DNA of 64,000 nucleotides from contig JBAZBH010000001.1 of NCBI GenBank assembly GCA_041671565.1, positions 7,552 to 71,551 on the forward strand, given 5' to 3'. Of this stretch, positions 7,987-61,598 are shown piece by piece; positions within the stretch are counted from its first letter, which is position 1, and every line of letters begins with the position of its first letter. Made by a program: the position numbers and the translations under genes. Under the pieces are notes generated by a model, which was not told the origin of the DNA, made no database searches, and saw nothing but the letters and a program-made list of their open reading frames with translations. Source of the DNA: Patescibacteria group bacterium. GTDB lineage: Bacteria; Patescibacteriota; Patescibacteriia; JACRDY01.

Positions 7987-8709
7987 ATGAAAATTCTTGG
8001 CGTCCGCGTGGACAACTATAATCTAGACGAAACGCTCAATCTGGTTAAAGGTTATCTAACTGACAACCGCCAACACCTGATCGCCACGGTTAATCCAGAG
8101 ATGGTGGTGCTCGCGCAAAAAGACTTAACTTTCCGGGAAGTGCTCAATGCCACTGACCTGAATCTACCTGACGGTTTTGGCGTGATTTTAGCCTCTTGGT
8201 TTCTCGGCGATAAGCTAAAAGAGCGCATCACCGGCGTGGATTTTGTCTGGCAAATTTGCGCCCTGGCGGAAAAACTGGATAAATCCGTTTATCTTCTGGG
8301 TGGGCAAGTCAAAGTCGGGGAGGCGGCCGCCGCCAAAATCAGCAAAAACTTTCCCCGGTTGAAAATCTTTTCCGGCGGCAATGACTGCCAGCCGACTGAT
8401 CCGGCAATTATCCAAGATCTGTCAGCCAAAAAACCGCACATCATCTTGGCGGCGTTTGGCCACGGCCGACAAGAAAAGTGGCTGGCCGAGAATCTACCGC
8501 GCTTGCCATTCGTGGATATCGGCCTCGGCGTCGGCGGCGCCTTTGACTTCATTGCCGGCAAAATCAAGCGCGCGCCAAAGTTCCTGCGGCAACTGGGCCT
8601 GGAATGGCTCTGGCGGCTAATCTTACAGCCTTGGCGCTGGCAGAGAATCCTGACCGCGACGGGGAGATTTAGTTGGTTGGTGGTAAAGGCGAGGTTTTTG
8701 AACAATTAA
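7987..8709 (+). CDS. WecB/TagA/CpsF-family glycosyltransferase
   Basis: Family-typical motifs are TVNPEM and PDG.G. The length is about 240 aa. Confidence 0.75.
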   Translation: MKILGVRVDNYNLDETLNLVKGYLTDNRQHLIATVNPEMVVLAQKDLTFREVLNATDLNLPDGFGVILASWFLGDKLKERITGVDFVWQICALAEKLDKSVYLLGGQVKVGEAAAAKISKNFPRLKIFSGGNDCQPTDPAIIQDLSAKKPHIILAAFGHGRQEKWLAENLPRLPFVDIGLGVGGAFDFIAGKIKRAPKFLRQLGLEWLWRLILQPWRWQRILTATGRFSWLVVKARFLNN

Positions 8710-8903
8710 AGGCTTTATGAAAAAAATAAATACACCGAAAAAGTACTTTCACTCGTCATTGGAGCAATAATATCAGTAGGTGTATTACTCTTATTAAATA
8801 ACATAATTCCTCAAATCAGCGGCAGGGTATAGTAAAATATCATTTAACGCGAGGTAGTTGATTTAAGAACCACCGTTTGACCAAAGCAGTTGTTTAATTT
8901 AAG

Positions 8904-9296
8904 GTGAATATTTATATGGAAACATCCGCAGAATTTATTCGACGAAAAAAAAGTGCTTTTTCTAAAGGAGAGGATAAATTCGTTAATGTAAAAGACATAG
9001 GAAGAAAAGGTAAGCATTATTTCGAAAAAGAAGCTATTACATTAATGCCTCAATATAATTTAAATAATAAAGTATTTATTATAGAAAGGCTTAAAAGAAT
9101 TAAAATAGAAGGCGATAGTGAGCATAAATTACTAAAAAATGGGGACATAGAATATAGAATTTGTTACTTTATAGTTGGAAAAATTGGCAAAGCCAAAAAT
9201 AAATGGTGGTGGGGGCAGTCCTGTCCGTTAATACCTGCTAAAGATTTAAAAAAATTAATCCAAAAAGCAGAAAACGAGGGCACTATTTTAGTTTAA
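8904..9296 (+). CDS. Hypothetical protein, AT-rich. First gene of a two-gene orphan cassette.
   Basis: A putative promoter (TTGACC, 17 bp spacer, TAAGGT) and an AAGGTGA RBS precede it. Its composition is visibly more AT-rich than the flanking genes. No recognisable motifs. Confidence 0.5.
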   Translation: MNIYMETSAEFIRRKKSAFSKGEDKFVNVKDIGRKGKHYFEKEAITLMPQYNLNNKVFIIERLKRIKIEGDSEHKLLKNGDIEYRICYFIVGKIGKAKNKWWWGQSCPLIPAKDLKKLIQKAENEGTILV

Positions 9297-9297
9297 A

Positions 9298-9903
9298 ATG
9301 GAAACTGATAAAATAATAAAGGAAGTTTTTGAACGGCAAAACGAAATATTTTCTAATCTGAATTTTGAAAATATTGCTGTTTATCTGTTTTTAAAAGACG
9401 AATACACAAAACAGAATATTCTGAATAATTTTGTATTTCAATTTGTTTTTAGATCATTTTATAGGATGGACAGCGCTGGGTTGTCCGATGAAATAAAAAG
9501 TTGTTATTTTAAATTATTGGCAAATAAACAAACAAAATTAGAAATAATTTTATCGGAACTGTATAAAATTCCTACATTAAAAAATAAAAAAACGATACAA
9601 TTCAGTTTTAGCACAAAATTACTTCACACAATTGATAATAATTTACCTATTTTTGATTCGGAGGTTGGAAAAATATTTAATTTAAAAGTAAGCGGTAAAA
9701 ATGAGGATGAAAAAATTGCTTCGTGCATTAAAATATATGACACTTTAAAAGTTTACTACTTGGAATTAAATAATGCGGAAGAAATAAAAGAAGTTATTTC
9801 AAAATTCAGACAAAGATTTGATGTTGATATTAATAAAATTTCGAATACAAAAATATTAGATTTTATTTTTTGGTCACTAGGAAAATTAGAATTTAAACAA
9901 TAA
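9298..9903 (+). CDS. Hypothetical protein, AT-rich. Second gene of the cassette.
   Basis: Its start overlaps the upstream stop (TAAAATG), suggesting translational coupling. Its stop lies 2 nt before the gltX start. No recognisable motifs. Confidence 0.5.
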   Translation: METDKIIKEVFERQNEIFSNLNFENIAVYLFLKDEYTKQNILNNFVFQFVFRSFYRMDSAGLSDEIKSCYFKLLANKQTKLEIILSELYKIPTLKNKKTIQFSFSTKLLHTIDNNLPIFDSEVGKIFNLKVSGKNEDEKIASCIKIYDTLKVYYLELNNAEEIKEVISKFRQRFDVDINKISNTKILDFIFWSLGKLEFKQ

Positions 9904-9905
9904 TT

Positions 9906-11390
9906 ATGAAATTAAAATCTCAAAATGTCCGCGTCCGTTTTGCCCCGAGCCCGACTGGCTTTGTCCATGTCGGAAGTTTACTGGCCGCGCTTTATAATTG
10001 GCTGGAGGCGAAGAAAAATGGCGGGGTTTTTATTTTGCGGGTGGAGGATACGGATCAGGCGCGGCTAGTGGAGGGGAGTGTGGAGAATTTACTGAAAGTC
10101 CTGCGCTGGGCCGGACTGGACCCGGACGAGGGCGTTAGCTTCGATAAAGCAGGGAAAGTGACGGAAAAGGGCGAATTTGGGCCTTATACACAGTCAAAAC
10201 GGCTGGATATCTACCGGCAGTACGCGAAGGAGCTAATTGATAAGGACGAAGCGTATTATTGCTTTTGCACTAAAGACCGGCTAGACACTCTCCGCGCCGA
10301 GCAGGAAAAAAATAAACAACTGACTAAATACGACGGCCTCTGCCGGCATTTAACCGAAGATGAAGTCGCGGAGAAATTAAAAAATCAGGAAAGCTTTGTT
10401 ATCCGCCAAAAAGTGCCAACCGGACAGGAAGTAGTACTCCACGACTTGATCCGCGGCGAAGTAAAGTTTCCGACTGACTCGCTGGACGACTCGGTCCTGA
10501 TGAAATCCGACGGCTTTCCGACTTACCATCTCGCCGTGGTGGTGGACGACCATCTGATGCAAATCACGCATGTTATCCGCGCGCAGGAATGGTTGCCGAG
10601 CTCGCCGAAGCACTTACTGTTATACAAATCTTTTGGCTGGACGGCGCCGCAGTTCGCGCATCTGTCGCATTTATTAAACAAAGACCGCAGTAAACTTTCC
10701 AAACGCCAGGGCGATGTGGCGGTGGAAGATTATATTAAATCCGGCTATTTACCGGAAGCGATGCTGAATTTCCTTGCCATCACCGGTTGGAACCCCGGGG
10801 AGGGGACTGAGCAAGAAATTTACTCGTTAAAAGAGTTGGCCAAAAAATTCAGTCTGGACCGAGTCCACAAAACCGGCGCGGTGTTTGACCGGGAAAAATT
10901 GGATTGGATAAATGGGTTGTATATTCGGAACTTAGATATTAAAGAATTGACGAAGTTGTGTCTGCCGTATCTCGGTGAATCGGTAATCGGTAATCAGAAA
11001 TCGGAATATGTAGAAAAGGTTATCGCTTTAGAACGGGAACGGATGAAGAAGCTGTCGGACATTAGCGAAAGCACCGGTTTCTTTTTTAGCGAGCCGGAGT
11101 ATCCGGCCGCGATGCTGGTCTGGAAAAAATCTGATCAAGAGAAAACCAAGGCGACACTGATCAAACTCGCCGGGTTTCTTGGTGGCGTTAAAAAATGGAA
11201 TAAAACTGATTTGGAAACTGCAGCGATCGCCTGGATCAGCGAGCAAGGCCTGACCAACGGCGAGACTCTCTGGCCGATGCGGGTCGCCCTGACCGGTAAA
11301 GACAAAAGCCCGGGTCCGTTTGAAGTGGCTGATGTCCTCGGCGCGGAAAAAACTTTGGCGCGACTCAACGCCGCCATCGCCAAATTGTAG
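9906..11390 (+). CDS. gltX: Glutamyl-tRNA synthetase
   Basis: A class I HIGH-type motif is present (PSPTGFVHVGS), as is a KMSKS-type motif (KLSKRQG). Confidence 0.9.
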   Translation: MKLKSQNVRVRFAPSPTGFVHVGSLLAALYNWLEAKKNGGVFILRVEDTDQARLVEGSVENLLKVLRWAGLDPDEGVSFDKAGKVTEKGEFGPYTQSKRLDIYRQYAKELIDKDEAYYCFCTKDRLDTLRAEQEKNKQLTKYDGLCRHLTEDEVAEKLKNQESFVIRQKVPTGQEVVLHDLIRGEVKFPTDSLDDSVLMKSDGFPTYHLAVVVDDHLMQITHVIRAQEWLPSSPKHLLLYKSFGWTAPQFAHLSHLLNKDRSKLSKRQGDVAVEDYIKSGYLPEAMLNFLAITGWNPGEGTEQEIYSLKELAKKFSLDRVHKTGAVFDREKLDWINGLYIRNLDIKELTKLCLPYLGESVIGNQKSEYVEKVIALERERMKKLSDISESTGFFFSEPEYPAAMLVWKKSDQEKTKATLIKLAGFLGGVKKWNKTDLETAAIAWISEQGLTNGETLWPMRVALTGKDKSPGPFEVADVLGAEKTLARLNAAIAKL

Positions 11391-18050: not shown

Positions 18051-18621
18051 TTTAAAACAAGCGCAGTGATCAAGTCTCTAAACCACCGTAAGTAGCTGGC
18101 GTAGGGGCAATTCACGAATTGCCCCAAGCTAATTCAAAAATCTAATCCTTGTTAGATAATACAAATTACCTTAATTTATTACCCTCGTTTTGCCCTCGCC
18201 GGGCAGGCGTTATCCGCCGCGGCGGATAACCAAAGAGTCTTGGGTCATTTTGTCTTGCCTTCCAAGACAAAATGAGCAGACGCGCGGCTACTTGGCAATT
18301 ATTTACTTTTGAATAAAAGACACTGTAGAGGAGTGCTGGTATAAAATCAGTCTAAAAAAATAACCGCGGGGTGATGACCGCGGATTTTGGTTTTGAGGGG
18401 ATGGGGACGGATGATTATTGGATGGGGATTTTTTTGAACTTTGAGCCCTGACGACGGTCTCGCCAACGGCGCCATAAATTGCTGAGGGACGGGGGATAGT
18501 CGCCGCTACATTCAGAGTTGAATAATCCTGTCCAAATGAACGCCCAAGCTTTTTTTAAGCATTGATCAATCCTCCTTGTAAATTATTATCGGCTTTTGGC
18601 CTACTTCTGTCAACCAAAATT

Positions 18622-19179
18622 TTAATGTTTTCTGGCTCTTATTATCTTTTTAACCGCCGACAAGCCGTCTAACTGTTTTTGCAATAAATAATCCTTTAAC
18701 CCCTCTTTACCCTTAATAATCTCGTAAGTAAATAATTCCTCTTCATCGTCGCCGGGATAGGGGAAGATGAATACTTTTAAATTATCATCATTTCTAAAAT
18801 ATTCAGTGACTTTCCAAGGATCAGTATCGCCGCATTCAAATATTATATTTTTGTCTAAACTAATAACATCAGGGATCCGGCCAAAAAAATTGTATTCCAA
18901 ACTGGATTTTAAACCAAAATTATTTCTGATATATTCTTCTGCCAAAACTTTTAAAGCCAGATGATTATTACTGCCGCCCTGATAATCAATGCTTTTAATC
19001 TGGCCATCTAAAATTTTATCAACAGTTGTTTGATAATCGGCTTTATTAAAGCCAGTTTTTGTTTTACTGATTTTTATATACTTCCGGTTCAATAAATCCA
19101 AAACATCGCTTAGCCCCTGATAATCCGGACTGCCGGTGAAATTTGAATAAAAAATTTCAAAAATATCAGCTCCGTCCAT
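18622..19179 (-). CDS. Hypothetical protein, AT-rich. It lies immediately downstream of the tyrosine recombinase, 3 bp away.
   Basis: A 185-aa ORF with no recognisable motifs. It is tightly packed against the recombinase stop. Confidence 0.4.
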   Translation of the reverse strand: MDGADIFEIFYSNFTGSPDYQGLSDVLDLLNRKYIKISKTKTGFNKADYQTTVDKILDGQIKSIDYQGGSNNHLALKVLAEEYIRNNFGLKSSLEYNFFGRIPDVISLDKNIIFECGDTDPWKVTEYFRNDDNLKVFIFPYPGDDEEELFTYEIIKGKEGLKDYLLQKQLDGLSAVKKIIRARKH

Positions 19180-19181
19180 AA

Positions 19182-20123
19182 CTAATCTTTTAAGGGATGA
19201 AACTTATGATGCGTTTTTTCCGCGTAACGGTCAGAGGCATGAACATAACGAGTGGTGGTATTCAACGACTCGTGACCGAGCAAATGCTGCAACGCGGCCG
19301 GATTGGCCCCTTGTTCAGCCATATAAGTTGCAAAACCATGCCTCAACGAGTGGGCGCTGATCGGTAAATTAATTCTTAATTTTTCCCGATATTCTTTGAT
19401 TTTATATTGCAAATAATTAGTGGAGATGCTTTTATTTTTTTCATTGCAATTACTACCGCGATAGGGGATAAAAAGGGCGGCCGAACTGTCATTCCGCTCG
19501 GCTAAATATTTTTGAATTGACTTATGCGCCCGCGGAGTTAAATAAACAAATCTTTGTTTTTTGCCCTTACCCATAATAAAAATTCTGCCGGTGTTGTCTA
19601 TCTGGCTCTTTTTTAAAGACAACAACTCGGAAATACGCATACCGGTAGAGAAGAGGACTTCGAGCATCGCCCGGTTGCGATCAGCAATAATTTTATTATT
19701 TTCCAGTTCAACCGGCGATTCAATCAATTTAATCATCTCCTGCAGCTCGGCGATTTGCGGATGTTTTTTTTCGGTTTTAATCAGCTTAACCGCTTCCGGG
19801 GCAATAGGGGAGACATAGTCCATATCAACCAAAAATTTAAGATATGATCTAAGGGCCGATAACATGCGATTCATTGAGAAGCTGGATAATTTTTTTTGGC
19901 CTTTATTTTGATTGGCAGTATTGCGGTCAATTGAAGTCAGGTAGGCTTTATAATAATTAATATCTTTCTTGGTCAAGTGATCAAACTTTAATTTAGCGTC
20001 AGTCAAATAATCCTCGAAGACCTTTAAGTCCCGCTCATAACTATATAAAGTTTCCTCGGAAAAATTATTAGTCCGGAGGTTTAATAGATATTCGTCTAGA
20101 TAGGCTAATTGATAGGAGGGCAT
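19182..20123 (-). CDS. Tyrosine recombinase/integrase (Xer-like).
   Basis: The catalytic residues are identifiable in order: R (GMRISE), K (GKGKKQR), H-x-x-R (HSLRHGFAT), H (LLGHES) and Y (RYVH). Confidence 0.8.
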   Translation of the reverse strand: MPSYQLAYLDEYLLNLRTNNFSEETLYSYERDLKVFEDYLTDAKLKFDHLTKKDINYYKAYLTSIDRNTANQNKGQKKLSSFSMNRMLSALRSYLKFLVDMDYVSPIAPEAVKLIKTEKKHPQIAELQEMIKLIESPVELENNKIIADRNRAMLEVLFSTGMRISELLSLKKSQIDNTGRIFIMGKGKKQRFVYLTPRAHKSIQKYLAERNDSSAALFIPYRGSNCNEKNKSISTNYLQYKIKEYREKLRINLPISAHSLRHGFATYMAEQGANPAALQHLLGHESLNTTTRYVHASDRYAEKTHHKFHPLKD

Positions 20124-25648: not shown

Positions 25649-25897
25649 TTAGTTTATTTTTTTAATTAATTTTAATTTCTCCGACTTTTTCAATTTCTTA
25701 ATCCGCGCTTCCTCGCGCGCGGCCGCTCCGCGATTCTTAAACTTCCTACTATAAACCACCCTCACCGGCCGCCGCGCCCTGGTATACTTGGCGCCGAGCC
25801 TACCGCCATTATGCTCCGCCACCCGCCGCGCCAAGTCCGTGGTAATGCCGGTGTAGAGAGTGGCGTCGGAACAGAGGAGGATATAGAGGTGGTACAT
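25649..25897 (-). CDS. GIY-YIG nuclease-domain protein (YhbQ-like).
   Basis: The GIY-YIG core is present as YHLYILLCSDATLYTGITTDLARRVAEHN. Confidence 0.7.
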   Translation of the reverse strand: MYHLYILLCSDATLYTGITTDLARRVAEHNGGRLGAKYTRARRPVRVVYSRKFKNRGAAAREEARIKKLKKSEKLKLIKKIN

Positions 25898-25928
25898 AGT
25901 TAGTTGTTTTTGTAAATTTTATAGTTAA

Positions 25929-26828
25929 TCAAACTAAAAACATTCGCTGGCAAAAAGCGCTAATTCCTATTCCATTTGTATTACAAGTCTGGACTCTATA
26001 TACCGGTACATTATTTATAAAAATAGTATAACCTACATTTATACCACTAGCCTTCTTAGCTATTATCACATCTTTTATTTTTGTCTGCTTGTCAATAGGT
26101 TTATAGATAGTAACACCCAAATCATTAACAATGATTACATATAAATCTTCGTCTTGACAATCTGTAATAAAATTTAAGAAATCATTTTTTTGCTTTGGTG
26201 TTAAATTATTAAAAGCATCAAAACAAGTAGTATTCAATAGAGATTGATATTTTTTACCATGCTCTCTGGCCCAAATCAAAAGTTTTTGATTATTCTTAGC
26301 CGTCCTCTTTAATTCACCCCTTTTATTAATATTCTTACCAGTAATTTTGAAAATGTGGTCATGTAGTTCTTTCCACATTTTATTTTGCTGTTTGATAAAA
26401 CTAAAACCGAAAAGTTTTTCTAATTTTCTTTGACCTAAATTTTTTAATGTTCCGGTTCCCGATTTAGCAATAGATTTTATGGAAAATCTTGTTTTCTTTT
26501 TGCTAATATGCTCCGCATCAACATCGGAAGTTGATTGCTCAATAACAAAATGACGGCCAGTCCAAACAACTCCGATGATCTTACCCTTTTTATCTATTTC
26601 GTTATCTAATATTTTTTTAATTTCTGGCTGAATTTTTATAAAATTATCATTTTGCAATTTTAATCTCTTCTTACCGTCTTCTCTTGCTAAAACTTGGTTA
26701 GATAATTTGGCTAAATTTTCACTATAAGAAAAAGTTATTTTATAAAGATGACAAATATACTGACAAACTAATAATTCAAAATAGTCCGCTTGAGCTCGAT
26801 TTGACTTTTCTTTATTACCCTTTTTCAT
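25929..26828 (-). CDS. Putative Type II restriction endonuclease. AT-rich, directly downstream of the N6-adenine methyltransferase.
   Basis: It lies 6 bp downstream of the methyltransferase on the same strand. Its composition is strongly AT-rich. No conserved REase fold is recognisable by eye. Confidence 0.45.
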   Translation of the reverse strand: MKKGNKEKSNRAQADYFELLVCQYICHLYKITFSYSENLAKLSNQVLAREDGKKRLKLQNDNFIKIQPEIKKILDNEIDKKGKIIGVVWTGRHFVIEQSTSDVDAEHISKKKTRFSIKSIAKSGTGTLKNLGQRKLEKLFGFSFIKQQNKMWKELHDHIFKITGKNINKRGELKRTAKNNQKLLIWAREHGKKYQSLLNTTCFDAFNNLTPKQKNDFLNFITDCQDEDLYVIIVNDLGVTIYKPIDKQTKIKDVIIAKKASGINVGYTIFINNVPVYRVQTCNTNGIGISAFCQRMFLV

Positions 26829-26834
26829 ATTTAA

Positions 26835-28289
26835 TTAGTTAAAATAAGCACTAACTATTTTATTAATTTCTTTTTGTTCGCGTTCAAAATTATAATTTAG
26901 ATCCTTTTTAATATTTTTAATAATATTTTCTGATATACTGGCTATGATTTTTATCTCTTGAACTTTAAAATTAGGCATGGGTAATTTTTTTATATCCCTA
27001 ATCTGAATTGAATTAGTGTGATTTAATAATTTAATTATTTTATTATAAATATTACTATTCAAAATACCAACAAAAAATTCTGGGGGGTATTTTAAAGGAT
27101 CTTTCGGAAAAAAACACATGGCCTTATTGCTTTCCCAAAGCGCTCCTCTTTCGGCTATCCTTGCCGACAAAGAAGAGCATATTCCTGAGATAATAAAACC
27201 GTCTTTATTACTTTCTAGATTTAAGTTTTTTGAGATTTTATAATTTTTTATAGATTGTTTATCCCACTTTATACAATATTCTACAGGAGAAAAATACTTT
27301 ATATCTCCACCCTTTTTATGATAAAACTTCCAATCACCGCTTGCCTTAATTACCTCTATCGGTATTTTCTGTAGACCACCGTTTCCAAACTGTCTCCCCC
27401 GATAATCTATAACACCTAAAAACGCTTTGTTATTTGTAGTATGCATCCCAAGCCCACCATTTAAAAAATCAACTAATTTTGGAAAAACTTTCATCTTATT
27501 AAGTATTGTGACATTGCCATTAAATCCAAAAATATAATCAGGGTTATTTAAAATTTCTCTTTGATTTATTCTTTTTTTAATCCCACTATAATCAGCTACT
27601 TGGTTGTTTCTACAATCGTTAAAAACAACAAAATGATTTTTGTCTGGCTTTTTATTTTTTAAATATATTATACAAGTATTTACCGACGCGCCGGTATCTT
27701 TAAATAAATTCTTAGGACAAATAGTTATTTCATTTATAGTATAGCTGGTCAGTAAAAATTTTCTTAAATTCTTATGAATTCCTAGGGTTAAGAAAGTATC
27801 GCTAATAATAAAACAAAGCTCGCCATAAATTTTTAAAAGTCGACAGCTTAAATAAAGAAACATGGCGTATGTATCATTAGCCCCTATTTCTTTATATATT
27901 TTTTTAAGCTCGCCCTTATTTTTTTTTATATAGCCACTTTGTTTATTAAGATAAGGAGGATTACCAATTATATGGCTAAACTCTTGTTTTTCGTTAAATA
28001 AACTATTACTCAAACTAGTTTCTAGCAGAGTATCTTTGATGACTATATTTTCTATTCCTAATTTAGTTATTATTTTATTTGTTTCGGGATTTATATCCCA
28101 AACGGTTATTTGTTGCGGCGATAATAATCTTTTTTCTAATATTTTAGAAACAAAAGCGCCATCACCTCCGCTGGGTTCAAGCAAATTACTTTTTGAAGTA
28201 AAACTTTTTACAAATTTATTAACCATATACTCAACGGTGTGTTGAGGTGTGTAAAAAGCTCCTAATTGTTTTTGTCTGTTTTTATCCAT
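26835..28289 (-). CDS. N6-adenine DNA methyltransferase (gamma-class, TaqI/Eco57I-like), with a C-terminal target-recognition domain.
   Basis: Motif X/I is LGAFYTPQ. Motif IV is IIGNPPYLN (NPPY). The composition is AT-rich. Confidence 0.8.
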   Translation of the reverse strand: MDKNRQKQLGAFYTPQHTVEYMVNKFVKSFTSKSNLLEPSGGDGAFVSKILEKRLLSPQQITVWDINPETNKIITKLGIENIVIKDTLLETSLSNSLFNEKQEFSHIIGNPPYLNKQSGYIKKNKGELKKIYKEIGANDTYAMFLYLSCRLLKIYGELCFIISDTFLTLGIHKNLRKFLLTSYTINEITICPKNLFKDTGASVNTCIIYLKNKKPDKNHFVVFNDCRNNQVADYSGIKKRINQREILNNPDYIFGFNGNVTILNKMKVFPKLVDFLNGGLGMHTTNNKAFLGVIDYRGRQFGNGGLQKIPIEVIKASGDWKFYHKKGGDIKYFSPVEYCIKWDKQSIKNYKISKNLNLESNKDGFIISGICSSLSARIAERGALWESNKAMCFFPKDPLKYPPEFFVGILNSNIYNKIIKLLNHTNSIQIRDIKKLPMPNFKVQEIKIIASISENIIKNIKKDLNYNFEREQKEINKIVSAYFN

Positions 28290-28295
28290 AATTAC

Positions 28296-28385
28296 ACTTA
28301 ATTTATCACGACTCCCTCTTGATCTTCTTCACCCCCCCATATACTTCCTCAAAACCTTCGGAATCTCCACCGAGCCGTCTTCGGC
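28296..28385 (-). pseudogene. Decayed duplicate of the serS 3' end. About 57 bp is roughly 90 percent identical to 29560-29616, with a 1-bp frameshift.
   Basis: cttcacccccccatatacttcctcaaaaccttcggaatctccaccgagccgtcttc here, versus cttcacccctcccatatatttcctcaaaaccttaggaatctcgaccgagccgtcttt in serS. Translation recovers ...DGSVEIPKVLRKYMGG and is then disrupted. Confidence 0.6.
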
Positions 28386-58966: not shown

Positions 58967-60103
58967 TTATAATCTATCTCTTCTAAAATTATCTAAAATC
59001 GCCGTAGCTAAAACATTAGATAAAACCGTTGGCACGGCATTCCCTATTTGTAAATTTCTATCGCTCCGAGAGCCATAAAATTGATAACTATCAGGAAAAC
59101 ACTGAATCCTGGCCCCTTCTCGGGTGGTTAAAGGCCGCGCCGCTTTTGGATGAATGCATCTTGACGACGACGGCGTGCTTAAATTTCTGGTTATGGTCGG
59201 CGCTGGCCTTTTCCACCAAAGCCGGCAATAAGTATTTTTGAATCCCGATGTCGGCCTCAAATTTTCTGGCAAATCTTCCGGCGTCCCGCCATCCGGCAAG
59301 AGCTCCATCATTTTTACCAGCTTCGCGTTATTCTTTGGCGCGTTCTGATCCATTATTTTTTTAGGCGCATTTTGGCGCATAAATCTTTGAAAACTATTCT
59401 TCGGCGCTGAAGCATAATTAAAACTCTCTTCGCCGGTTTTAATAAATGGCAAATCGCTGATTGCCTCTTCAAGCGTTAAATATGGTTTTAAATTTTTTTG
59501 GAATAAACTTCTAGATTCTTTTAAATTATAATTAGTGGGCTGAGGATAAACAAAATTAGTTTTAAGTTTCGAGCCAATAATTACTATCCTTTCTCTGATC
59601 TGCGGCGCGCCGTAATCTGCCGCATTTAAAACTTGGGATTGAACTTTATAGCCAAGTGATTTAAAAAGCAAAATTATTGTTTCTAGCAATTCTCCGTTTT
59701 GCATCGATAAAAGACCTCTGACATTTTCAAAAAGAAAAAACTTTGGATTAAATTCTTTTAAAACGCGATAATACTCTTGGAAGAGCTTGCCCCGCGGATC
59801 ATTTATCAACCTTTTGCCAACAGTTGAATACGCCTGACAAGGCGGCCCACCAATAATTATATCTATCTCGTTAGGTTTAATCCCTAAATCATTTTCAATT
59901 TTTTTGGCATTAAACTTCTTAATATCATCGATATAAACTTTTACAGTCGGATGGTTCAGTGAATAAGCTTTTGCCATATTCGGTAAAATCTCATTAGCCG
60001 CAACAATTTCAAAATTACTATTATGGGCAAAACCATAACTTAACCCGCCCACACCGCAAAACAAATCAATAATTTTTAACTTCTTGCTCATAAAAAAATC
60101 CAA
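58967..60103 (-). CDS. dcm: DNA (cytosine-5)-methyltransferase
   Basis: Motif I is DLFCGVGGLSYGF. Motif IV is GGPPCQAYS. Motif VI is FENVRGL. AT-rich. Confidence 0.9.
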   Translation of the reverse strand: MDFFMSKKLKIIDLFCGVGGLSYGFAHNSNFEIVAANEILPNMAKAYSLNHPTVKVYIDDIKKFNAKKIENDLGIKPNEIDIIIGGPPCQAYSTVGKRLINDPRGKLFQEYYRVLKEFNPKFFLFENVRGLLSMQNGELLETIILLFKSLGYKVQSQVLNAADYGAPQIRERIVIIGSKLKTNFVYPQPTNYNLKESRSLFQKNLKPYLTLEEAISDLPFIKTGEESFNYASAPKNSFQRFMRQNAPKKIMDQNAPKNNAKLVKMMELLPDGGTPEDLPENLRPTSGFKNTYCRLWWKRPAPTITRNLSTPSSSRCIHPKAARPLTTREGARIQCFPDSYQFYGSRSDRNLQIGNAVPTVLSNVLATAILDNFRRDRL

Positions 60104-60105
60104 GG

Positions 60106-60909
60106 CTAACTAAAACTTATATCTTTAAATTTTATTGGGCTTTCGGTTATTTTCCAGACAAAATTGTTTTGATCAATATTAAAAACCGTTTGCCCCTCCA
60201 TTTGTTGCCTAGTAATCCAGTTCACGCTATCGTCATCAATTTCATCCAATCTAATAAACGCCACTTGACCATTATACAGATCGAAATGAATTGCCAACGA
60301 ATGAACCTTAAAATCATGAAAAACCCTCTTGGCCTCCAAAACTTTGTGTTGTTTTATATCATTGATTCCGGTAAAACCTGCCTGCATTTCTACCCTGACC
60401 TTTTCTTTGCCTTTTAATCTAATTTCTAAATCAGCCTTTGGGGTTCTTTTAAAAGTCTCTATATTTCTCAAATCATCGTCGCCGATTAAATCAATTTTAG
60501 AAGTATTAACATTAAATATTATGCCGAGGGCTTTAAGAAAATAGTTTGAAATTATATAACCTCTCATCCAGGAAAAATAAACTTGCTCCGGTCGTCGGCC
60601 CTGGTTATTAAGTCTGGGCAAAATATTACTCGCTTTCATTATTTTAAAAGTGCGATCTATATATTCCGCTTTAAAAGCGGCTAGATTATCTATTTTTATT
60701 TCAGCCGCAACTACGCTATTAATTTTATAGATAATGTCGTAAAGCCTTTTATTTAAAATCTTTATATAATTAAAATCAACAGTAGGAGTAACATCTTTGG
60801 CGCCAAAGAAATCTTTTACGACCGCCTGACTAACGAAACCTAATTTCCGCCGATACTGCCGAAAATATTCAGCGGTAATTGTAATTTCTCTTGGCATAAT
60901 TTTATACAC
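60106..60909 (-). CDS. Putative Type II restriction endonuclease partner of the C5-methyltransferase. AT-rich.
   Basis: It lies 3 bp upstream of dcm on the same strand, in AT-rich composition. A possible D...E.K-type core is ADLEI...VEMQAG. No confident fold call. Confidence 0.4.
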   Translation of the reverse strand: MYKIMPREITITAEYFRQYRRKLGFVSQAVVKDFFGAKDVTPTVDFNYIKILNKRLYDIIYKINSVVAAEIKIDNLAAFKAEYIDRTFKIMKASNILPRLNNQGRRPEQVYFSWMRGYIISNYFLKALGIIFNVNTSKIDLIGDDDLRNIETFKRTPKADLEIRLKGKEKVRVEMQAGFTGINDIKQHKVLEAKRVFHDFKVHSLAIHFDLYNGQVAFIRLDEIDDDSVNWITRQQMEGQTVFNIDQNNFVWKITESPIKFKDISFS

Positions 60910-60977
60910 ACAAATTAACCTTTGAAGTCTAATGACTGAGGTTAAAATTAGTTAACTATTTTTATTATACCATGTAA

Positions 60978-61598
60978 CTACGCCCGTTTGAAATTGCGAA
61001 TCACGGCCATGACCACACCCTGAATCAGCGGGTCTTGAACATAAATCGGCTGGTAGGCTTTATTCGCCGGCTGAAGGCGGATGCGGTTCGCCTCGCGGTA
61101 AAACTTCTTCAGCGTGGCGTAAGCGTTGTCCAGAAGCGCCACCACCGTATCACCGTTATTCGGGCTGGGGTTCCGTTCAATCACCACATAGTCGCCGTCC
61201 AAAATCCCGTCTTCCATCATACTGTCGCCTTTAACTTGCAAAACATAAGAGTTCTCCCGATGGATAACCAGATTTGCCGGAATCGCCACCACCTCCGGAT
61301 TGGCAACCGCCTCGATTGGCTCGCCGGCGGCAATCAAACCCATCAGCGGTAGATTGATAATCTCGCCAATATTTACTTCGCCCTCGTCAACCGGCGTCAG
61401 TTCAATCGACCGCGACTCATTGGTGGACCGTTTAAGGTAGCCTTTCTTTTCTAAGGCCTCAATGTGGTCGGCAACAGTCGCGACCGAAGCCAATTTAAAC
61501 TCCGCGGCAATCTCGCGAAAGCTGGGCGAATAGCCGTGGCCGATAATAAAATCACGGATAAACTCCAAGATTTCGTGCTGTTTTTTGGTTAATCCCAT
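60978..61598 (-). CDS. lexA: LexA repressor
   Basis: An N-terminal winged HTH is followed by the cleavage site and S24 peptidase motifs (VKGDSM ... K). Confidence 0.85.
   Translation of the reverse strand: MGLTKKQHEILEFIRDFIIGHGYSPSFREIAAEFKLASVATVADHIEALEKKGYLKRSTNESRSIELTPVDEGEVNIGEIINLPLMGLIAAGEPIEAVANPEVVAIPANLVIHRENSYVLQVKGDSMMEDGILDGDYVVIERNPSPNNGDTVVALLDNAYATLKKFYREANRIRLQPANKAYQPIYVQDPLIQGVVMAVIRNFKRA

Follow-up and report, generated by a model that had tools for sequence, protein, structure and literature searches.

Introduction

Type I restriction-modification (R-M) loci can embed independent defences, two described cases being PrrC (PMC12707154) and TgvAB (PMC11411939). Patescibacteria genomes are reported to contain numerous small islands as well as genes transferred one by one; defence functions are enriched among them, and one of the islands is a complete type I R-M system (PMC12455944). 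Here we analyse an islet of 1196 bases (positions 8710–9905) within a 64,000-nucleotide stretch from a Patescibacteria group bacterium (contig JBAZBH010000001.1, positions 7,552 to 71,551 of the forward strand; hereafter the window, numbered from its first letter). The islet lies between a WecG-family glycosyltransferase gene and gltX and holds two small genes, which we call A and B. It resembles the islands reported for this group in being a short, compositionally atypical insertion between housekeeping genes, and in sharing its window with a second AT-rich islet that carries a DNA methyltransferase gene, but differs from them in having no integrase, tRNA or repeat boundaries.

An initial annotation had regarded A and B as an orphan, translationally coupled pair and had speculated that they form a two-component module such as a toxin-antitoxin, abortive-infection or other defence pair. 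We find instead that A and B are two separate, widespread, uncharacterised families which are adjacent only in this genome. The islet is probably a horizontally acquired segment whose two cargo genes are unrelated, stem from the gene pool of mobile elements and defence, and may each act alone in the conflict between host and mobile DNA. That A and B are adjacent here most likely reflects chance insertion or recombination and no functional pairing.

Results

A and B belong to separate families that do not co-occur

A set of 156 related loci was drawn from species genomes, metagenomes, viral contigs and exact-sequence look-ups, with three contigs from the strain of the window and a short contig bearing a fusion set aside, and hidden Markov models (HMMs) of both families were run over every open reading frame (ORF) of these loci. 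A was found in 66 of the 156 loci and B in 90, while the two families occurred together in none of them, their co-occurrence being confined to the window. A search for a divergent B beside A, or a divergent A beside B, at permissive settings (hmmsearch --max, no filters, E ≤ 50) returned only noise, with all E-values above 0.3. Clustering of the immediate neighbours using blastp and phmmer revealed a highly diverse set of proteins and no fixed partner for either gene, and alignment of A and B with the recurrent neighbour families by hhalign gave probabilities of 2% or less.

The nearest relatives of B (L071–L074, approximately 80% nucleotide identity) align with the window only over positions 9293/9296–9903, and those of A (L010 and L011, 72–75% nucleotide identity) only over 8915–9297. 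In either case, then, DNA similarity gives out at the limits of the ORF. The arrangement is as follows:

7987–8709, + strand: left flank, WecG/TagA/CpsF-family glycosyltransferase gene (PF03808), of normal G+C (GC) content; a host gene outside the islet
8710–8915, + strand: islet leader, AT-rich and non-coding, holding the AAGGTGA motif and a weak claimed promoter
8916–9296, + strand: gene A, 126 amino acids, of an undescribed alpha/beta family of about 125 amino acids
9298–9903, + strand: gene B, 201 amino acids, predicted all-helical, best described as a divergent relative of DUF6308 (PF19827)
9906–11390, + strand: right flank, gltX, encoding glutamyl-tRNA synthetase (PF00749, PF19269); a host gene

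The nearest relatives of A and of B have other neighbours than those in the window. Moreover, no same-strand neighbour was present within 40 bp at 19 of 52 A loci and 22 of 48 B loci, and this frequent solitary occurrence argues against a constitutively toxic partner, which would not be expected to stand alone. Co-occurrence, DNA similarity and solo occurrence are thus hard to reconcile with a toxin-antitoxin or obligate two-protein module. Nor are the two genes orphans: among the matches listed, each has more than 120 homologues at 40–75% identity (at least 125 for A in a collection clustered at 90%, and at least 128 for B with a single-sequence query), and the families extend to 468 representatives at 50% identity for A (exhaustive profile search) and 724 clusters at 90% identity for B (family profile).

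Gene A encodes an undescribed protein with a conserved charged face

Gene A had been annotated as encoding 130 amino acids. Its start is most likely ATG 8916 (126 amino acids) rather than GTG 8904, because the GTG sits inside the Shine-Dalgarno sequence and the homologues begin at an equivalent 'MET..EFI' motif. Members of the family are nearly all stand-alone proteins of 120–140 amino acids, in whose alignment K26, D27, R30, Q46, K52, E79, Y80, R81, Y84, W97, G100, Q101 and D110 are invariant. The AlphaFold2 model (predicted local distance difference test score, pLDDT, of 95.7) consists of a helix, five strands including a long hairpin, and a further helix, with a cluster of strictly conserved charged residues on one face of the beta-sheet. 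Compared with its closest relatives, gene A has a non-synonymous divergence (dN) of 0.20–0.21 with synonymous sites saturated, and the ratio of non-synonymous to synonymous divergence (dN/dS) is approximately 0.10 where it is computable.

Foldseek returned no significant match to the model of A (best E-values 0.14 in PDB and 0.059 in BFVD), and the family profile found only chance-level matches among PDB sequences. The window protein matched nothing significantly in Pfam, NCBIfam, PHROGs or PADLOC, and no consistent Pfam or PADLOC match emerged across 59 family members; a hit to the PADLOC model 'Specificity_I' (E = 0.0023) was a one-off, seen in just one of these 59, and was rejected. A is an undescribed family without a family or fold assignment in the libraries searched. 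We also noted two fusions of the A domain, each a single instance: one to a HEPN_AbiV domain (E = 8.9e-27) in P0288, encoded at 208–1323 of L160 on a 2-kb contig of high GC content, and one to a gamma-glutamyl cyclotransferase domain of the GGACT/AIG2-like type in P0350.

Gene B encodes a probable divergent relative of DUF6308

Invariant positions in the B alignment are E24, F47, Y55, F71, F104, K107, K185 and D188. The AlphaFold2 model (pLDDT 96.7) is all-helical, with eleven helices, and dN/dS relative to the closest relatives is 0.16–0.19. As for A, the window protein gave nothing significant in Pfam, NCBIfam, PHROGs or PADLOC, in agreement with the earlier remark that neither protein has a recognisable motif; no PADLOC model was matched consistently across 61 members of the B family, and its profile found only chance-level matches among PDB sequences.

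Weak matches to DUF6308 (PF19827) were obtained in 42 of the 61 members. These are always colinear and cover positions ~92–193 of the 193-position profile. One member (P0245) exceeds the gathering score, at 32.9 versus 27.3 bits, whereas nine others that were scanned gave 14–25 bits or nothing, and the window protein itself had no match at E ≤ 1. The precomputed PF19827 label is attached to two B clusters. B is best described as a divergent relative or sister group of DUF6308: the B proteins, at about 200 amino acids, are close in length to the profile and colinear with it in their C-terminal half, but their N-terminal half is unmatched and DUF6308 is itself a family without known function. 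There was no mention of DUF6308 or PF19827 in the literature library searched. A 630-residue ORF at L118 (1560–3452) contains a full B domain (residues 4–203) followed by ~430 residues, in which we recognised by eye an AlbA_2/Schlafen-like segment, 'ERHKVEFK...NTNGGMLLIGV'; this may be a real fusion or the product of a missed stop codon. The fusions of A with HEPN_AbiV and GGACT/AIG2 domains and of B with the AlbA_2-like segment are hints, and may be gene-call artefacts.

Structure prediction and remote-homology searching, which the initial annotation had recommended, thus yielded confident models of both proteins, but no significant fold match for A and a family relationship for B that is a divergent one. 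Both A and B are nonetheless real genes under purifying selection, given the dN/dS values of 0.1–0.19, the invariant polar residues and the high pLDDT scores (95.7 and 96.7).

The islet is compositionally foreign and both families are patchily distributed

The islet fills the interval between the stop of the WecG-family gene (8709) and the gltX ATG (9906). The initial annotation was correct in placing two co-directional + strand ORFs in this interval, and in placing the stop of gene B (9901–9903) 2 nucleotides ahead of the gltX start. It had also described the pair as AT-rich, rich in Lys, Asn and Ile, and foreign in composition, which we can substantiate. The GC content of the islet is 0.268 against a mean of 0.459 for the 64-kb window (standard deviation 0.057 over windows of equal length; z = −3.35), and just 0.16% of windows of the islet's length are equally AT-rich, such that its composition does differ from that of the genome. 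The combined share of Lys, Asn, Ile, Phe and Tyr is 0.41 in A and 0.45 in B, against a median of 0.27 for the window's proteins, among which B ranks first as the most extreme and A third.

Low GC content is a property of both families and not of this locus only. A-family genes lie on average 7.3 GC points below their flanks (n = 64), with 37 of them more than 5 points lower, and B-family genes lie 10.7 points below (n = 47), again with 37 more than 5 points lower, in hosts whose GC content ranges from ~0.3 to 0.6. The distribution is patchy and crosses domains. Only 61 A loci were found among 185,579 species genomes, with 40–67% identity irrespective of phylum, and the hosts include many Patescibacteria classes, Woesearchaeota/Nanoarchaeota, Methanoperedens, Bathyarchaeota, Chloroflexota, Omnitrophota, Brocadiaceae, Bacteroidota and others; named hosts of B are Patescibacteria, Nanoarchaeota and Nanohalarchaeota. 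Taken together, the two families are found in Patescibacteria, in DPANN and other archaea, in Chloroflexota and in other phyla. Horizontal acquisition of the islet is supported by its extreme composition, by the AT-richness of both families across unrelated hosts, and by their patchy, cross-domain spread at similar identity.

The 206-bp leader contains no coding remnant detectable by tblastn with all neighbour proteins, and no Rfam match. Three further contigs, recovered by exact-identity look-up of the flanking proteins (L157–L159), have flanking proteins identical to those of the window and all three carry the islet; the four islet-bearing contigs, including that of the window, stem from different samples. 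At the right-hand side (9877–9905), no normally spaced Shine-Dalgarno-like sequence precedes gltX; the closest candidate is an AGGAAA ~23 nucleotides upstream, within gene B. The first seven codons of gltX are as AT-rich as the islet itself, and for this reason the foreign DNA may extend on its right into the start of gltX.

A and B are probably expressed by read-through

The AAGGTGA Shine-Dalgarno sequence ahead of the first gene is present as annotated, at 8901–8907 and 8 nucleotides before ATG 8916. A sigma70-like promoter had been claimed at the same place, and its letters can be read there (TTGACC at 8877–8882, a spacer of 17 nucleotides and TAAGGT at 8900–8905), but we find little to recommend it. 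The claimed −10 box agrees with TATAAT at 3 of 6 positions and overlaps the claimed ribosome-binding site, and both therefore cannot serve one transcript. A consensus promoter scan returned no site at the claimed promoter, and the 4 promoter-like sites in the region are fewer than in shuffled sequence (5.9 ± 2.6). No terminator-like site was found on the + strand of the islet, nor in the stretch that separates A from the WecG stop. The junction between the two genes, which had been described as an overlapping TAAAATG, in fact has its TAA stop (9294–9296) and ATG (9298) separated by a single spacer base, and gene B, which begins 1 nucleotide past the stop of A, lacks its own normally spaced Shine-Dalgarno sequence.

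Because there is no convincing promoter or terminator belonging to the islet, and because of the gene spacing, A and B would most likely be expressed by read-through within a wecG–gltX transcription unit, with the AAGGTGA sequence serving the translation of A, and with ribosomes re-initiating at B 1 nucleotide after the A stop. Transcription of gltX most likely has to cross the islet, and in the present genome this essential gene probably relies on transcripts that run through foreign DNA.

Both families recur beside restriction-modification genes in a minority of loci

Gene maps with cluster labels were drawn for the related loci. A recurring arrangement is a co-directional type I R-M array with A or B near its 3' end. 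For A, the order HsdS-x-HsdR-A-RecB/Cas4-like was seen at L026, with close variants at L018, L040 and L052, while at L014 A is followed by HsdM-HsdS. The arrays containing B read HsdS-x-HsdR-x-x-B (L092), HsdR-x-B (L123), HsdM-HsdS-x-B (L105) and HsdM-x-HsdS-B (L114). At L026, L040, L044, L052 and L053, A starts no more than 25 bp past the end of a large upstream gene. In L026, L040, L044 and L053 this is a restriction or methylase gene, which in L044 and L053 contains an N6-adenine methyltransferase module.

The Pfam families most often represented among the 150 nearest neighbour proteins of A are N6_Mtase (7), Eco57I (7) and AAA_21 (6), followed by HSDR_N, PDDEXK_1 and UPF0020 (4 each) and by SWI2_SNF2, T1R_D3-like, ResIII and MmeI_Mtase (3 each). 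Around B, the corresponding list is headed by Peptidase_S49/SppA (5 of 150 proteins) and TPR (4), with N6_N4_Mtase, Metallophos and AAA_22 at 3 each. Judged by cluster labels at loci with enough flanking sequence, the number of loci with an R-M gene within 6 kb is at least 17 (of 53) for A and at least 11 (of 26) for B, and the link of A and B to R-M genes is suggestive only.

A and B have several small neighbour families in common, namely a 250-residue RecB/Cas4-like nuclease, a 226-residue protein, a 135-residue receiver-like protein, 23S-IVS four-helix proteins and small GIY-YIG proteins. This overlap suggests that A and B share one pool of shuffling cargo genes. The 226-residue protein and the 250-residue nuclease, the latter of the PD-(D/E)XK type with a Cys cluster, are recurrent beside A or B (L093 555–1987, L001 4931–5611, L085 8599–9288, L026 8389–9141, L052 8381–9157 and L019 7229–7996); their genes are sometimes paired, as in L093 where the 226-residue gene precedes the 250-residue gene, and they may constitute a two-gene system of their own.

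Two further features of the neighbourhoods concern the sites at which B is found. B lies beside a class-Ic aminoacyl-tRNA synthetase gene in two unrelated lineages, being downstream of a 563-residue GlnRS/GluRS-like gene in L006 (3877–6600) and upstream of gltX in the window (9298–11390), and in L120 it is found two genes past a member of the synthetase family seen in L006. This proximity may be a coincidence or may mark a preferred insertion neighbourhood. The SppA gene is beside B in L085, L092, L103 and L104, and near A in L040, which suggests that the side of sppA is a recurrent insertion site in some Patescibacteria.

Other AT-rich segments of the window

A second strongly AT-rich islet (GC 0.27–0.29) occupies 25649–28350 on the − strand. 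The product of 26835–28289 (484 amino acids, − strand), within the AT-rich stretch 25851–28350, is an N6-adenine DNA methyltransferase with GAFYTP and NPPY motifs, which matches M.BseCI (7qw5, E = 1.2e-9) and also M.TaqI; the adjacent gene at 25929–26828 (299 amino acids) could encode the cognate restriction enzyme, and the 82-residue product of 25649–25897 resembles the small GIY-YIG family found beside B in L108. The AT-rich segments 59451–61000 and 18551–19200 (− strand) contain one uncharacterised gene each, at 60106–60897 (263 amino acids, no match among PDB sequences) and 18622–19179 (185 amino acids), and look like further single-gene foreign insertions in this genome.

Discussion

The explanation that we favour is that A and B were drawn from a collection of small accessory genes which, in Patescibacteria, DPANN archaea and further uncultured lineages, shuffle through R-M operons, defence islands and integrative elements. 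Each protein would be an accessory factor in the conflict between host and mobile DNA, working alone and not as the partner of the other. Judging by neighbourhood only, a defence-related role is possible for A or B singly. A would be the stronger candidate for a role in this conflict, because it is often directly 3' of a restriction or methylase-restriction gene, is several times beside a RecB/Cas4-like nuclease, and has a conserved charged face, a surface that would fit nucleic-acid binding or cleavage. B is without a biochemical lead.

Several observations weigh against this explanation. At the functional level, neither A nor B has an assignable biochemical activity, no PADLOC model is matched consistently across the 59 A and 61 B members, and defence and counter-defence roles are indistinguishable. 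The R-M link is a minority pattern for both genes, and the distance gradient around them is shallow and built on small counts. Since the commonest neighbours of B are SppA and TPR proteins, not R-M genes, its link to restriction is weaker than that of A. The window copies adjoin wecG and gltX, with no R-M or mobility gene beside them. As regards insertion, the borders of the islet have no bracketing repeats beyond short chance matches, no tRNA was found in the whole 64-kb window, no integrase or recombinase gene adjoins the islet, and no empty site was present among the contigs found by exact-identity look-up of the flanking proteins.

An unlikely alternative, though one with some evidence behind it, is that A and/or B are anti-restriction or anti-defence cargo of integrative elements or phages, of which the window would hold a stranded remnant. 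Both families do occur in integrative elements, alongside genes for serine recombinase, D5_N/DUF5906 primase, ParB-methyltransferase (N6/N4), RadC, Fic, XRE-Panacea and AbiEii. Genes of the serine recombinase, primase, ParB-methyltransferase and RadC type are characteristic of early or leading regions in such elements. B is in addition carried by three IMG/VR viral contigs, and in L151 it lies between two ParB-methyltransferase genes. A, however, was found on no viral contig and is often located in host-type hsd operons right after the restriction gene, which is a better fit to a defence accessory; tblastn searches of cultured phages and plasmids gave no match to either family, and both proteins, as read directly from their sequences, are basic rather than acidic DNA mimics.

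It is quite improbable that A and B are free-standing selfish genes, for example homing-endonuclease-like genes which insert themselves between conserved host genes. Such genes would account for single-gene AT-rich insertions in which homology stops at the ORF ends, for the frequent occurrence of B alone between housekeeping genes (RmuC, the class-Ic tRNA synthetase in L006 and gltX here) and for the small GIY-YIG genes in the same neighbourhoods. Yet A and B match no known homing-endonuclease family or nuclease fold, their insertion sites are not conserved, and there is no empty-site or cleavage-site support.

A single functional module of mutually dependent partners, as first proposed, is very improbable. 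The co-directional spacing of 1 nucleotide, the probable translational coupling, the small sizes and the foreign composition would all suit such a module, but the two families share none of the 156 loci, no divergent partner emerges even in the permissive HMM search (all E > 0.3), homology stops at the boundary of each ORF, both genes are often solo, and neither matches a toxin-antitoxin or PADLOC family.

That A and B are lineage-specific housekeeping genes, AT-rich only through their amino-acid composition and never transferred, can hardly be maintained: the islet is stable in all four contigs with identical flanking proteins, but the families are rare and scattered over phyla and domains, are AT-rich relative to hosts with GC contents of 0.3 to 0.6, and have a different genomic context at nearly every locus. 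Equally implausible is an identity of B as a divergent HhH-GPD-type DNA glycosylase, which was suggested by weak Foldseek matches (mostly MjOgg, MutY, MagIII and EndoIII), a comparable length of ~200 amino acids and a likeness by eye of 'K107...P117-I-F-D120' to the helix-hairpin-helix and catalytic Asp of MutY/EndoIII, but is contradicted by the quality of those matches (E ≥ 0.89, probability ≤ 0.18, template modelling score ≤ 0.29), the absence of any glycosylase among PDB sequences matched by the B profile at E ≤ 10, an hhalign probability of 0.1% against E. coli EndoIII (with the EndoIII sequence entered by hand) and a K-to-D spacing of 13 residues versus the ~18 of the glycosylase family.

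By itself, the locus is no more than a common kind of small acquired islet, for which the toxin-antitoxin reading is very probably wrong. What is gained are two sizeable, well-conserved and confidently foldable families without known function, of which A has neither a Pfam family nor a structural match in the libraries searched. Both recur beside R-M genes in ultra-small bacteria and archaea, organisms whose defence repertoire is poorly known, and they are candidates for restriction-linked functions in these prokaryotes. Should A or B turn out to act in defence or counter-defence, the catalogue of single-gene systems would be extended, and there would be a handle on how genome-reduced symbionts treat foreign DNA.

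Comparison with known systems

The window copies of A and B are reminiscent of a type II toxin-antitoxin pair in being small, co-directional and nearly abutting genes on an islet of foreign composition, but differ from one in that their pairing is not conserved, each also occurs solo, and neither matches a toxin or antitoxin family. The closer comparison is with PrrC in EcoprrI and TgvAB on VPI-2 of Vibrio cholerae. A and B resemble neither PrrC, an ABC-ATPase anticodon nuclease, nor the GmrSD-type TgvAB in sequence or fold, and in the window they are not beside any hsd gene. In a substantial minority of loci, though, A or B is found inside or 3' of hsdM/S/R arrays, co-directional with the preceding gene and often no more than 25 bp from it. 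Moreover, like PrrC and TgvAB, the two genes are patchily distributed, horizontally mobile and dispensable for the R-M enzyme itself (PMC12707154, PMC11411939).

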